Source of the DNA: Lachnospiraceae bacterium
Lineage (GTDB): Bacteria > Bacillota > Clostridia > Lachnospirales > Lachnospiraceae
Length of the DNA stretch: 64,000 nucleotides
Assembly (NCBI GenBank): GCA_034172985.1
Contig: JAXFDY010000189.1
Location: 10,023-74,022, forward strand
Reading direction: 5' to 3'
Both the position numbers and the translations under genes were made by a program. The notes beneath the pieces are model-generated. The model saw only the letters and a list, made by a program, of their open reading frames with translations, made no database searches and was not told the DNA's origin. Of the stretch, positions 38,618 to 59,155 are shown in pieces. How positions within the stretch are numbered: position 1 is the stretch's first letter; each line of letters opens with the position of its first letter.

Positions 38618-39271
38618 TTACAATACCATTTTCATCAGATATAAATTAACAAATGTTTCCAACCCTGAGGTTATCACATTTAAAATCAGCAATTGAAACA
38701 GGCCACGTAAATAACCCGGGATTTTCTTTTTTAGGAAACTATAAGATTTATTTTCCCGATATTCTTTCGAATCCCGGCATAACTCCCTGCTAAAATATAC
38801 TAAAACTAAAATCATCAGCACATAAGATATGTAATGCGGGAAAATAGATATTCCATACAATAGAACTCCTCCCATCCCATACTGAAGCACATATACACTA
38901 ACCAGAATCCCTATGGAAAATCCTTTATACAAAAGAAAAAGCTCCGAAGTCAGGTAGCCAAGTGATGTCAGACTCAGCAGTAAAATCAGTAAAATCTCTT
39001 TGCTTTGTCTCCAGAAGGAATATAAGAATAAATCCTTTTTTTCCACTGAGACACCACTAAACCGGTCAATAAAGTATTCGCTATAAACGCCAAACTTTTC
39101 ATATCCTTCACTGCAAAAAAGATTCAGAAATAATGTTCCAAACACAATACCGCCCAGAAACAAACACAGAAGAACCATATCCTGACTGTTTCTCTTCACT
39201 TTTATTTTTTTTTGCACACTTTTCTTTTTTGATGCACTGATGTACGCAAATCCTCTCAACATATGCTTCAT
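38618..39271 (-). CDS. spoIIM: Stage II sporulation protein M
   Basis: Multi-TM; KGFSIGILVS, SIFPH, LETFVN; follows the NUDIX gene as in other Firmicutes. Confidence 0.75.
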   Translation of the reverse strand: MKHMLRGFAYISASKKKSVQKKIKVKRNSQDMVLLCLFLGGIVFGTLFLNLFCSEGYEKFGVYSEYFIDRFSGVSVEKKDLFLYSFWRQSKEILLILLLSLTSLGYLTSELFLLYKGFSIGILVSVYVLQYGMGGVLLYGISIFPHYISYVLMILVLVYFSRELCRDSKEYRENKSYSFLKKKIPGYLRGLFQLLILNVITSGLETFVNLYLMKMVL

Positions 39272-52512: not shown

Positions 52513-53958
52513 TTACCATCCCAGTAATCTTGTATATAATTCTTCATATTTTCTTGCAGAACGTTTCCAGGAGAAATCTGCCTCCATGCCTCTATCTATA
52601 ATCTTGTTCCATTCACGTTTTTTGTTATAGAACGTATGCTCAGCATAACGGATCGTATTCAACATCTCATGAGCATTATAATTGGCAAAAGAAAATCCTG
52701 TTCCCTTTGATTCATATTCATTGTAAGGTTCTACTGTATCTTTTAATCCTCCCGTTTCACGAACAATCGGCACTGTACCATATCGCAAACTCATTAACTG
52801 TGATAATCCACATGGTTCAAACAGTGACGGCATAAGGAATGCGTCACAAGATGCATATATCTTATGTGACAGTTCTTCAGAATAATAGATATTTGCAGAC
52901 ACGGTATTGTTATATTTCCAATCATAATGACGGAACATATTCTCGTACTTTTCTTCGCCTGTACCTAAAATGACAAACTCAATTCCATCGGAACAAATCT
53001 CATCCATCACGCACTGGATTAAATCAAGTCCTTTCTGACTTGTCAATCTGGACACAAGACCTATCATGAAACGTCTCTCATCCTGTTCCAATCCTAACTG
53101 TTGCTGCAGACTACGCTTATTCTTAATCTTTTCTTTTCTGAAATTATTTACAGAATAATTCTGCACAATATACGGATCTGTTTCCGGATTATATGTATCA
53201 TAATCAATACCATTAACAATACCAAATAGATTATTGCTTCTGGCCCTCATCAAGCCATCCAGAGTTTCTCCGTAAAATTCAGTCTGTATTTCCTGAGCAT
53301 ATGTCTCACTGACTGTCGTTACATAATCTGCATAAACGATACCACCTTTCAGGAAATTAGCATCCTTATAATGAAGGAGCTTATCTGAGGTGAAATAATA
53401 GTCAGAAAGACCAACCATATCTTTTACCGTTTTTGCATCCCAGATACCCTGGAATTTTAAATTATGAATCGTCATGATAGACTTGATTCCCCGATAAAAA
53501 TCACCCTGTGCAAAAGTATCTTTCAGGAACACAGGAATCAAACCTGTCTGCCAGTCATGACAATGGATAATATCCGGTCGGAATCCTATTACCGGAAGTG
53601 CTGACAGTGCTGCTCTTGAAAAGAATGCAAACTTCTCAAGATCATAACAGATATCGCCATATGGTTTTGGACCACTAAAATAATATTCATTATCAATAAA
53701 GTAATAAGTGATACCCTCATACTCTGTCTTTAAAACACCCACATACTGGCTTCTCCATGCAAGATCCATGTAAAAATGAGTAACATATTCTAATTTATTT
53801 GCAAACTCTCCTTTCATACACTTATATTTTGGGATAATTACTCTGCAATCGTATTCGTCTTTATTAAAACTCTTTGGCAGAGAACCTACAACATCTGCAA
53901 GTCCTCCTGTTTTGATAAAAGGAACTGATTCAGAAGCGACAAATAATATTTTTTTCAT
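52513..53958 (-). CDS. glgA: Glycogen synthase
   Basis: KTGGLADV, HCHDWQT, TIHNLKFQG, NGID, SRLTSQKG, PSLFEPCGLSQL. Confidence 0.96.
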   Translation of the reverse strand: MKKILFVASESVPFIKTGGLADVVGSLPKSFNKDEYDCRVIIPKYKCMKGEFANKLEYVTHFYMDLAWRSQYVGVLKTEYEGITYYFIDNEYYFSGPKPYGDICYDLEKFAFFSRAALSALPVIGFRPDIIHCHDWQTGLIPVFLKDTFAQGDFYRGIKSIMTIHNLKFQGIWDAKTVKDMVGLSDYYFTSDKLLHYKDANFLKGGIVYADYVTTVSETYAQEIQTEFYGETLDGLMRARSNNLFGIVNGIDYDTYNPETDPYIVQNYSVNNFRKEKIKNKRSLQQQLGLEQDERRFMIGLVSRLTSQKGLDLIQCVMDEICSDGIEFVILGTGEEKYENMFRHYDWKYNNTVSANIYYSEELSHKIYASCDAFLMPSLFEPCGLSQLMSLRYGTVPIVRETGGLKDTVEPYNEYESKGTGFSFANYNAHEMLNTIRYAEHTFYNKKREWNKIIDRGMEADFSWKRSARKYEELYTRLLGW

Positions 53959-54053
53959 ACGTTTCCTCCATAATGAAATTTTTTCTCCGTACAACGATAT
54001 TTTTTTTATGAATAAAAATATTATACATCATTTTTACAAATCTGAAAAGTGTT

Positions 54054-54674
54054 TTATGACATTTTACTCAATCTAATTTTATCTGCAATTAATGCTATAA
54101 ATTCAGAATTTGTTGGTTTTCCTTTTCCTTCATTGATGGTATATCCGAATAACTCTTCGATTGTATCTATCTTTCCCCTGCTCCATGCTACTTCTATCGC
54201 ATGACGAATCGCACGTTCTACTCTGCTGGATGTGGTATTATTTTTTTTTGCAATTGCAGGATATAAAATTTTGGTTACTGCTCCCAGCATCTCCATATCA
54301 TTGACAGACATAATAATCGCATCTCTCAGATAATGATATCCTTTGATATGTGCCGGTACACCTACTTCATGGATAATAGCTGTAACTTCACTTTCCAGCG
54401 TCTTTGCCATTTTTTCCGGACTTTTTTCTTCCTGATTTGTCAGTTCTTCACTGATTGTCCTATACTTTTCTTCAGAAGGCAGATAATTTCCTTTTGGAAT
54501 AATTACTTCAAAAACAAATGTATCAGAACGTTCCTTTTTTATCACTTCACATACCTGTTCACCACTTTTCGCTCTTCTTATGAAATTAACGCACTCATTA
54601 TTATTCAACATTTTATCAAGAACATTCAATATTGTCTCATTCTCTTCCTGTATCAAATCAGCTGTTCCATTCAT
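54054..54674 (-). CDS. spo0A: Spo0A with intact DNA-binding domain and degenerate, truncated receiver
   Basis: [60 protein letters not shown]; directly after spoIVB; about 206 aa. Confidence 0.85.
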
Positions 54675-54749
54675 CATTATAACCTCCACAAAGATTTTTG
54701 CTTTTTCGCTCTCTTTCGAAAAGATTTTAAAATGATTAAGTAGTCTTAC

Positions 54750-54833: not shown

Positions 54834-55916
54834 TCAATCGTGATTCAGCATATTTTCGATAAAAATCCCATAACCTCTTGTGGAATCATTCACAAATACA
54901 TGTGTAACTGCCCCGATTATCTTTCCGTCCTGTATAATGGGCGTGCCACTCATTCCCTGCACAATTCCATTTGTTAATCCCAGTAATCTTTCATCCGTCA
55001 CTTCCAATACCAGTCCTTTATTATCATTGCTTGATTTATTTATCTTTTCAATCTCCACCTCATAATCGCAGAGTTGTCCTGATACATTGGAACGGATATA
55101 TGCTTTTCCTTTTTGAATCTCTGAAGACATGGCTGTCTGCAATGGTTCAAGTCCGTATGCATCTATCAGTTGCTGTACCTTATTTTTATTTGATAATGTT
55201 CCATAAATACCTATAGAAGTATTTTCAAGAATACTTCCCTGAATTTTGTCATCTTCATATGAAATCATTCCATATAAAGCTCCCGGATTTCCTTTTTCAC
55301 CCTTTTTAATGCCCCACACATTTGCCTGATAAAGTATTCCGCCCTTACTGTCCAATAATTCTCCGGTATCGATATCACTTATTCCGTGTCCTAATGCTCC
55401 ATAGCTGCCATCTTCTGTGAGATAAGTCATGGTACCGATTCCCTGTGTGTCATCTCTTACCCAGATTCCCAGTTTATACTCATCCTTGCCTGTCTTCACG
55501 GGCGAAATTTTCACCTCTATTGTTTGTCCGTTACGCAGAATCGTAAGCACTACATCTTCATCACCATATTTATTTACAAGAAATACCAGCTGACTTTTAG
55601 AGCTCACATCAATATCATTTATTTTTGTAATATAATCTCCCGCCTTCACTTTATTTAATGCAGGATTCATATTAACTCCATTCTCATCCTCCACTTCATC
55701 TGTTCCTATTATCATGACTCCTTTTGTCTGAAGATAGATTCCTACCTGAAATCCACAGGGATATACATATTCTTCTTCGGATGCATTGACTGACATCAGA
55801 CTTCTTTCTTCTATTTCTTCTACTGGCAAAGTACGATCAATATAATAAATAGAAAAAACTAAACTCATTGCTAAAACTAACAATAAAACCCTTCGATACA
55901 CCATCTTTCTGTTCAT
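54834..55916 (-). CDS. spoIVB: SpoIVB peptidase (S55) with PDZ domain
   Basis: GIYLQTKGV, KLGIWVRD, GIGTMTY, GALGHGI, GIVQGMSGTP, GAVTHVF; start after GAGGTGG. Confidence 0.93.
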   Translation of the reverse strand: MNRKMVYRRVLLLVLAMSLVFSIYYIDRTLPVEEIEERSLMSVNASEEEYVYPCGFQVGIYLQTKGVMIIGTDEVEDENGVNMNPALNKVKAGDYITKINDIDVSSKSQLVFLVNKYGDEDVVLTILRNGQTIEVKISPVKTGKDEYKLGIWVRDDTQGIGTMTYLTEDGSYGALGHGISDIDTGELLDSKGGILYQANVWGIKKGEKGNPGALYGMISYEDDKIQGSILENTSIGIYGTLSNKNKVQQLIDAYGLEPLQTAMSSEIQKGKAYIRSNVSGQLCDYEVEIEKINKSSNDNKGLVLEVTDERLLGLTNGIVQGMSGTPIIQDGKIIGAVTHVFVNDSTRGYGIFIENMLNHD

Positions 55917-55995
55917 TCTTCCACCTCGATTATTTTTTTCTATTAGTAGTATGGAAGTTTTCATACAGAATAGTCTGCATCATTTTTCCTAAAAT

Positions 55996-57470: not shown

Positions 57471-59155
57471 CTAATTTTTTGTTTTCACATAATTTTGGGC
57501 CATTCTTTTCATTTCTCTTGCATTTTCTCTTACCGTATCGGTTATTTCTGCTCCTCCAAGCATTCTTGCAAGCTCCTCCACTGAATTTTCTTCCGAAAGC
57601 TGAATCATACCCGTCACAGTTTTTCCATCATGGACCGATTTCTCAATGAGATAATGGCTGTCTGCCATCGATGCAATCTGCGGCAAATGAGTGATACAAA
57701 TAACCTGATGATTCCGGCTGATTTGTTTCAGTTTTTCAGAAACCATTTGTGCCGTTCTTCCACTGATTCCAGTATCAATTTCATCAAAAATAAGTGTTTC
57801 TACCTGATCTTTCCCTGCAAGAATACTCTTAAATCCCAACATAATTCTGAAAGTTCACCACCGGATGCTACTTTGGACAATGGTTTCACTGTTTCCCCCG
57901 GATTCGTAGAAATCAAAAACTGTACAACATCATTACCATTTGCAGAATAATGATCTGCCTTTTTAAATTCTACTTCAAACACTACCTCAAGAAAATTTAA
58001 ATCTTTTAACCCCTTCACGATATTCTCCTTCAGGGCACTTGCAGATTTTTCTCTTAACCCGGTCAGTTTATCACATAAAATACTTAACTCTCCATCCAGT
58101 TTTTTTAATTCTTCCTGCGCTTTCACTTTTTCTTCTTCAAAATTCTGATAGAATTTTAATTTTTCGTAAGCAGCCTCTTTGTGCTCCAAAATATCACTTA
58201 TGGTTTTGCCGTATTTCAGTTTCAAACGATTCAGAAGATCAATCCTCTGTTCTAATTCATAATATTTTTCCCCATCAAAAATCATATCATCCATATAACC
58301 GGATATTTCTCTTGCAAGATCTGTACATAATCCTTCGATATCCGAAATCAGTCCTGCGAACTCTTCGATTTTTTCATCATAACTACACAATTCGCTGATT
58401 TCTTTGACTGACCGGCCTACTAACTCACGGATACTTCTGTCTTCCCCATCTATCATCTCATATACTCCGCCAAGCCCTGCGGTGATTTTTTCAGCATTCG
58501 ACATTTTTCTATACTCTTCTTCCAATGTCTCATCCTCACCAATAGTCAGATTAGCAGTTTCAATCTCATTTACTTCAAATTCTAAAAAAGAAAGCTCTCT
58601 TCTGCGCTCCTCTTCATCCTCCGTGAATTCCGACAGTTTTTCTTTCATTTCTTTATATTGATGATATTTTTCGCATAATTTTTTCTTTATTTCAGAAACT
58701 TCTGAACCTCCATATTCGTCCAGCATTTCCAGATGTCTGGAAGTCTTTAACAAGCTCTCATTATCATGCTGTCCATGAATATCCATCAGCATCGAAGCAA
58801 TTTCTTTCAGCATAGTTACCGATATGGTTTCCCCATTCACTTTAACAATATTTTTTCCATTCATGATTTTTCTGGAAATAATAATCTGCCCTTCTTCCCA
58901 CGACAAATCGTGGTTCAAAAAATATTGCTGAATATCTTGCCTTTTTGTGTCAAATATTAATTCCACTAATGCATATTCTGCACCTGTTCTAATGATATCT
59001 TTCGTAACTTTTCCACCGAGAGCAATATTAACCGAACCAATAATAATGGATTTTCCGGCACCAGTTTCACCGGTCAGTATATTTAAGCCCTCTTTAAAAT
59101 CCACTTCAGCCTCTTCAATTAAAGCCAGATTTTTCACATGTAAATTTAGCAGCAT
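57471..59155 (-). pseudogene. recN: DNA repair protein RecN split by a 1-nt frameshift near 57847 (real or sequencing error)
   Basis: GETGAGKS Walker A...VASGGELS in one frame; MLGFKSIL...LIFDEIDTGISG...ITHLPQIAS in the next frame; DNA reads TCA GA ATT ATG instead of TCA AGA ATT ATG. Confidence 0.85.

Follow-up and report, generated by a model that had tools for sequence, protein, structure and literature searches.

The only Spo0A of the Lachnospiraceae bacterium considered here is a short ortholog of this regulator, in which a complete DNA-binding domain is preceded by half a receiver, and whose control by phosphorylation has, to judge from its sequence, almost certainly been lost. The gene lies in the window, meaning the whole stretch of 64,000 nucleotides that was analysed, and the same form recurs in related species; in these bacteria control of Spo0A probably dispenses with phosphorylation. 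In the textbook account, the decision to form an endospore falls when Spo0A is phosphorylated. Phosphorylated Spo0A dimerises through the alpha4-beta5-alpha5 face of its receiver, while in Bacillus subtilis the unphosphorylated receiver inhibits the effector domain, and removal of the receiver leads to phosphorylation-independent activity. Lacking the acceptor Asp, the switch Thr, the aromatic switch residue, the conserved Lys and the alpha4-beta5-alpha5 face, the short protein almost certainly cannot be switched by a histidine kinase or a phosphorelay. If this is true, the sporulation signal enters elsewhere, with spo0A transcription, protein partners or protein turnover as candidates. Sporulation governs the transmission of gut Lachnospiraceae between hosts and its triggers in these bacteria are poorly understood; since the clade that carries the short form includes a cultured isolate, 48-33, the question is directly testable. 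The protein is, moreover, a natural experiment on the capabilities of half a receiver domain.

The gene occupies a single open frame (54054..54689, reverse strand), in which direct reading finds a GTG at 54689 and ATGs at 54677 and 54674 (the features of the locus are collected in the table, where residues are counted from the first ATG). Orthologs in an alignment of clade members start at the position of the second ATG, 54674, which is the start chosen in the initial annotation of this DNA, made from the sequence alone. At the place of the ribosome-binding site, four of the other five genomes with the short form have GTGGAGGT upstream of the gene, and G004 has ATGGAGGT. That the DNA-binding domain is intact, as the initial annotation held, is confirmed by a Pfam match to PF08769 (Spo0A_C) over positions 1-104 of 104 (153 bits, E 2.8e-45) and by the alignment of residues 91-204 to 1LQ1, the B. 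subtilis Spo0A DNA-binding domain with DNA (E 5.8e-51). The NCBIfam equivalog model for Spo0A, TIGR02875, is matched above its cut-off (225.4 bits vs 200), with a score that comes almost wholly from model positions 127-259, beside a weak match at 7-74. The Pfam Response_reg profile reaches 15.5 bits against a cut-off of 30.2 and is matched at positions 2-54 of 111 only.

Table. Features of the short spo0A locus and other features of the window; coordinates are positions in the window.
Feature	Coordinates	Strand	Evidence and remarks
Short spo0A CDS	54054..54677	-	207 aa from ATG 54677, or 206 aa from ATG 54674; stop codon 54056-54054
Ribosome-binding site GGAGG	54683..54687	-	Read directly in the sequence
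Receiver remnant, residues 1-62 (beta1-alpha1-beta2-alpha2-beta3 and IIPK loop)	54492..54677	-	Partial Response_reg; 1DZ3 alignment
Variable acidic linker, residues 63-93	54399..54491	-	Occupies the place of alpha3-alpha5 and the normal inter-domain linker
Spo0A DNA-binding / transcription-activation domain, residues 94-207, including the recognition helix	54057..54398	-	PF08769; 1LQ1
Three TTTAC repeats with an exact 11-bp period	54777-54773, 54766-54762, 54755-54751	-	Sequence reading
spoIVB	54834..55964	-	Peptidase_S55 272 bits; TIGR02860 320 bits vs cut-off 305; directly upstream of spo0A
glgA (glycogen/starch synthase)	52513..53994	-	Glyco_transf_5 286 bits; downstream of spo0A
spoIIM-like gene	38618-39271		57.5 bits vs cut-off 100

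What precedes the DNA-binding domain can nevertheless be placed on a receiver. A gapless alignment pairs residues 9-74 with positions 7-72 of the Geobacillus stearothermophilus Spo0A receiver (1DZ3/1QMP), at an E of only 0.09, in a register that puts IQEEN on IADDN and FVFEVIIPK on LLLDIIMPH; an alignment of 60 sequences that includes full-length relatives supports the same register, in agreement with the gapless N-terminal alignment to Spo0A claimed earlier. E11 and E12 (54647-54642) take the place of the Asp-Asp pair, and E57, whose GAA codon was found at 54509-54507 where the initial annotation had read it, that of the phosphoacceptor Asp56. Compared with the full-length relatives in the 60-sequence alignment, about 60 residues (alpha3-beta4-alpha4-beta5-alpha5) are gone in frame, and with them, again as claimed, the switch Thr, the aromatic switch residue and the conserved Lys. 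The replacement of all three pocket Asp residues by Glu thus stands for the window protein but not for its clade, most of whose members keep Asp at the second pocket position (QEDN) while a few, the window protein among them, have Glu. At the D56 position Glu prevails in the clade; one cluster has Asn, two have Gln, and Gly occurs a single time. Among the features of the Spo0A family, then, the protein has the full Spo0A_C domain, the equivalog score, the locus beside spoIVB and sole-copy status, and lacks the complete receiver with its D10, D11, D56, Thr and Lys. AlphaFold2, with either the 60-sequence alignment or one of 32 sequences, gave no confident N-terminal fold (residues 1-93 at pLDDT 38-70, the linker below 50), and the secondary structures predicted for residues 1-93 conflict between the two alignments; the DNA-binding domain was predicted at pLDDT 85-95.

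The source genome (2.66 Mb in 202 contigs, 95% complete) was found by profile search to hold no second spo0A, the only other Spo0A_C match having an E of 0.18, and so a full-length copy elsewhere, one of the points on which the initial annotation had made its reading depend, did not emerge: the window gene is the sole Spo0A_C gene. A receiver split between two genes was likewise ruled out, since a tblastn search of the genome with the C-terminal receiver half of the sister clade returned only ordinary full receivers, so that the missing half is not encoded elsewhere as a gene of its own. The gene lies directly after spoIVB, as the initial annotation had said, and spoIVB adjoins spo0A in each of the six short-clade genomes as well as in outgroup genera; on the downstream side, glgA follows spo0A throughout the 11 species of the genus and also in several outgroups. 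The order spoIVB-spo0A-glgA is thereby common to the short-form genomes and to an outgroup genus with a full-length Spo0A, which makes the short spo0A a positional ortholog. As a side observation, spoIVB no longer adjoins spo0A in the full-length sister clade, where spo0A-glgA is kept, so that the canonical spoIVB-spo0A linkage is broken in the clade that keeps the canonical protein.

Of the ten other species-level genomes in the genus, five encode this short form, at 68-76% identity along its whole length, and the remaining five a canonical Spo0A of 266-267 aa with ADDN and LLDIIMPKLDG. The short-form genomes include those of Lachnospiraceae bacterium 48-33 (the cultured isolate), Roseburia sp. 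CAG:303, the mouse-gut metagenome-assembled genome (MAG) MGBC130214 and "Roseburia sp." E16__bin188. A search of 5.8 billion proteins added about 30 further clusters at 90% identity with the same architecture (198-216 aa, Spo0A_C as the only Pfam domain, 59-79% identical to the query). A maximum-likelihood tree of GlgA recovers the genus, the full-length clade and the short-form clade with ultrafast bootstrap/SH-aLRT values of 99/98, 100/98 and 91/96%, respectively; the short-form clade is monophyletic and sister to the clade with canonical Spo0A, which is consistent with a single truncation event. Isolate 48-33 alone among the short-clade genomes has an extra, distant Spo0A_C-like paralog (G007:C1:392017-392358, 37% identical, in a 268-aa frame).

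This distribution also bears on the suspicion that the short gene is an assembly artefact, the product of a chimeric contig or a fresh pseudogene. The assembly, in 202 contigs, does contain at least two broken genes, and two of the related metagenomic proteins, P0030 and P0040, look like chimeras of short-form and full-length sequences joined inside the DNA-binding domain, and probably are assembly chimeras. Against this, six independent assemblies, including that of a cultured isolate, agree in architecture and deletion boundary, as do about 30 clusters from several sources, and the frame is intact and under purifying selection. A deletion common to six species-level genomes and about 30 clusters is neither an assembly artefact nor strain-level decay, and an artefact, named in the initial annotation among the outcomes that would refute its reading, is effectively refuted as an explanation.

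Selection was estimated by region as omega (Nei-Gojobori, NG86) from the six genomic short-form sequences. The DNA-binding domain has an omega of about 0.03. In the half receiver (residues 2-62), dN is 0.2-0.4 and omega 0.07-0.23 where dS is unsaturated, and in the linker, which is not reliably alignable between species, dN is 0.7-2.2 and omega, ranging from about 0.5 to above 1, is near neutral; dN of the N-terminal part is thus 3-5 times below that of the linker. No stop codon was found in the N-terminal part of any clade member, and the examination of N-terminal dN/dS and stops proposed at the outset accordingly points to purifying selection. Across 32 clade sequences, E49, D52 and I59-I60-P61-K62 are invariant in this part and E11, D12, K15, L20, K22, E28, F32, I33, G39, Q41, F56 and E57 nearly so. 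Identity of the DNA-binding domain is 94% within each clade and 85% between them, against 64% (short clade), 85% (full-length clade) and 33% (between the two) for the N-terminal half. The receiver remnant, that is, changed strongly after the truncation and now evolves faster than a working receiver, yet is clearly constrained, a pattern unlike that of a decaying leader sequence.

The genes for sporulation, early and late ones alike, are kept as well. In all 11 species of the genus spoIVA is found (about 600-635 bits against a cut-off of 460), as is each of a spoIIE-type phosphatase gene, spoIIGA, gpr and spoVAD, with no difference in sporulation gene presence between the short and the full-length clade; spoIVA, the spoIIE-like gene, spoIIGA, spoIVB, gpr and spoVAD are full length and free of stops in all short-clade species except for one gpr stop. 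The earlier statement that spoIVB, spoIIM and dac are intact in the window holds for spoIVB and for a D-Ala-D-Ala carboxypeptidase gene, which is present, and is weakened for the spoIIM-like gene, whose score lies below the family cut-off. The gpr exception is in the source genome itself (G000:C31:30687-31574), with an in-frame TAA at about codon 13 (TDLALE*KERF) of a gene that is intact in the other ten species; in recN (57471-59155, reverse strand), a 1-base frameshift near 57842 falls within the conserved SGGELSRIML motif and leaves two overlapping frames, of 451 and 123 aa. Both may be assembly errors, or real lesions and early decay. Spo0E-type phosphatases were considered as a marker of lost phospho-control and set aside as uninformative, being absent from all 11 species and hence equally from both clades.

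Retention of these genes is itself open to another reading, in which sporulation has disappeared from the lineage, the DNA-binding domain serves a non-sporulation regulon, for instance of metabolism, motility or biofilm formation, and the receiver was lost as sporulation signalling became unneeded. In a genomic survey, spo0A was found along with many sporulation genes in 32 of 42 clostridia that form no spores, and many non-spore-forming Lachnospiraceae have kept them too, so that gene retention is no proof of sporulation; the gpr nonsense codon and the recN frameshift of the source genome would fit such a relic or repurposed regulator, as would the faster evolution of the N-terminal half (64% identity as opposed to 85% in the sister clade, with DNA-binding domains equally conserved in both). 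On the other side, the sporulation genes are stop-free, that one gpr stop aside, in short-clade species so diverged that dS saturates, and retention over so long a time implies that the sporulation programme is under selection; in the family, furthermore, genomes without Spo0A also lack spoIVA, which was absent from all six such control genomes. We consider loss of sporulation unlikely. With the N-terminal part under purifying selection and the sporulation genes kept, a rewired Spo0A is better supported than random decay, and the distribution of the short form adds to these two in upholding the initial annotation, which had preferred a rewired, non-phosphorylatable regulator.

How might such a Spo0A be controlled? 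We propose that an ancestor of one sublineage of the genus lost alpha3 to alpha5 of the receiver in frame and that the phosphoacceptor Asp was replaced, mostly by Glu, leaving a protein that would still be the master regulator of sporulation and would act on 0A boxes. By analogy with sad67 and with the isolated C-terminal domain of Spo0A, the short form, freed of the inhibitory receiver fold, may be intrinsically active, in which case the decision to sporulate would be set by the amount of Spo0A made from a conserved promoter with TTTAC repeats; the retained N-terminal module may add control through partner binding or self-association. On balance it seems likely, with appreciable doubt, that the short Spo0A remains the sporulation master regulator and is controlled by its abundance or by partners. 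Glu is the commonest state of the acceptor position in pseudo-receivers and can mimic phosphorylation (PMC12632262). The sad67 allele of spo0A is constitutively active, and its sudden induction in B. subtilis does not by itself bring about efficient sporulation (PMC4689505), so that a constitutive Spo0A would need other checkpoints. In Clostridioides difficile Spo0A, D56 is the phosphorylation site and is required for full activity, according to a 2022 mutagenesis study, which describes all Spo0A proteins studied so far as regulated by phosphorylation.

The promoter on which control by abundance would depend is shared by both clades. The third TTTAC repeat lies 20 bp upstream of a -10-like TAAAAT, which is followed by elements containing CGAA/CGACA, and the repeats precede spo0A in all 11 species, whether the protein is short or full length; the downstream elements, too, occur before the full-length spo0A of the sister clade. 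Being present in both clades, the repeats are not specific to the atypical gene, and promoter rewiring was rejected as an explanation of the short gene, the same architecture standing before the full-length spo0A of the sister clade; the spo0A promoter may well be the control point all the same, though it did not change together with the protein. Repeats of TTTAC much like these also stand before spoIIGA (G000:C122, upstream of 15772). A scan of the source genome for 0A boxes detected no strict TGNCGAA between genes ahead of spoIIGA or spoIIE; one TTCGACA, at -223, is inside ftsZ.

Control could, on the other hand, be post-translational and still dispense with phosphotransfer, if the half receiver docked on the DHp domain of a kinase or on another regulator through the surface formed by alpha1 and the beta3 loop, or if it masked the DNA-binding domain until released by a ligand or protein. 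The invariant IIPK loop, the conserved alpha1 pattern and the purifying selection on the N-terminal 62 residues speak for such a partner-gated switch, the N-terminal part being constrained where a mere spacer would drift like the linker; in C. difficile, moreover, mutation of P60 destabilises Spo0A and residues of the receiver surface matter for regulation (2022 mutagenesis study). It is set back by the want of a gene for the other receiver half in the genome and of any identified partner, while the N-terminal structure predictions, like the absence of Spo0E-type phosphatases from both clades, are uninformative, and we regard gating by a partner as the main mode of control as distinctly improbable.

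Set beside known systems, the short Spo0A shares its locus, a nearly identical effector domain with its recognition helix and 60 alignable N-terminal receiver residues with the canonical proteins of B. subtilis, G. stearothermophilus and C. difficile, which, however, have a full receiver, whereas the window form is without alpha3-alpha5 and a dimerisation face and has Glu for Asp56 and both pocket Asp residues. There is also a likeness to laboratory constructs, sad67 and the isolated C-terminal domain, in which the receiver is likewise removed after beta3 or wholly and activity is phosphorylation-independent. The sad67 deletion, which we take to span about residues 63-81, presumably starts at about the same point as the natural one. 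Yet the laboratory alleles are artificial and stand under inducible promoters, whereas the natural form has lost about 60 residues, is the sole copy and keeps its native promoter; it was fixed by evolution and has persisted beside the sporulation genes while species diverged.

Phage-encoded and stand-alone Spo0A_C proteins likewise pair a Spo0A effector domain with no functional receiver, the phage homologs being effector domain and nothing else, and independence from host phospho-signals has likewise been proposed for them (Schwartz et al. 2023, PMC10294663), but they have no receiver remnant and are accessory or viral, present alongside the Spo0A of the host, whereas the window gene is chromosomal, syntenic and single-copy, and its product has a conserved remnant of 62 residues. 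In pseudo-receivers the acceptor is likewise replaced, mostly by Glu, phosphorylation independence is presumed, and control by synthesis level or by partners has been proposed (PMC12632262). The window protein has the acceptor replacement and lacks the full fold: pseudo-receivers keep the complete (beta-alpha)5 fold recognised by Pfam, whereas the window form has half of it and falls below the Pfam threshold. By its effector domain and locus, the short Spo0A thus classifies as a true ortholog, and as neither a classical pseudo-receiver nor a stand-alone effector. In the full-text literature searched, a natural, chromosomal, sole-copy Spo0A with a truncated receiver is not described, the truncated forms there being phage homologs and laboratory alleles, and truncated Spo0A goes unmentioned in a survey that covered 180 Firmicutes genomes.

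Truncation of the Spo0A receiver is not unique to the window clade, and independent truncations are common in Lachnospiraceae. Among 401 genomes of the family, 287 have Spo0A_C, and in at least 26 of these, from 23 genera, the best Spo0A copy lies in a stop-to-stop frame of 178-223 aa; a renewed search of these 26 genomes gave no canonical, high-scoring, full-length Spo0A. A widespread second type, of about 170-180 aa ('MEQLNV..TKDNE..KEFQIMITVPS'), retains beta1-alpha1-beta2 only; its carriers are mouse-gut isolates and MAGs under the labels Acetatifactor or Eisenbergiella. In G309, beta1-alpha1 is joined to beta5-alpha5, and in the metagenomic cluster P0065 Asp56 is intact and the deletion follows alpha3. 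The boundaries of the deletion differ among these forms and from that of the window protein, so that these are independent events, alike with the window form in having a truncated receiver; type 2 and the G309 form are also the best Spo0A of genomes that keep spoIVA, a gene found above its family cut-off in 25 of the 26 genomes with truncated forms (in one of the 25 with an internal TAA).

That the receiver was truncated independently in many other genera suggests that the case is no curiosity but part of a general trend in evolution. We raise more tentatively, as a possibility we rate somewhat short of even, that Spo0A without a working receiver is a recurrent and selected state in gut Lachnospiraceae, with at least three to four independent truncations and a truncated form as the best Spo0A in no fewer than 24 genera with spoIVA retained; sporulation would then begin without Spo0A phosphorylation in a considerable part of the gut commensals, and the half receiver of the window clade would be a new module of regulation or self-association, made from a broken receiver. 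The forms differ in company: most of the 26 genomes have a second Spo0A_C match, in an open frame of 126-201 aa that is too short for a full receiver, and such a paralog is carried by the type 2 genomes, unlike that of the window. A few of the 26 have additional low-scoring, divergent Spo0A_C-like matches, in frames of 219-308 aa.
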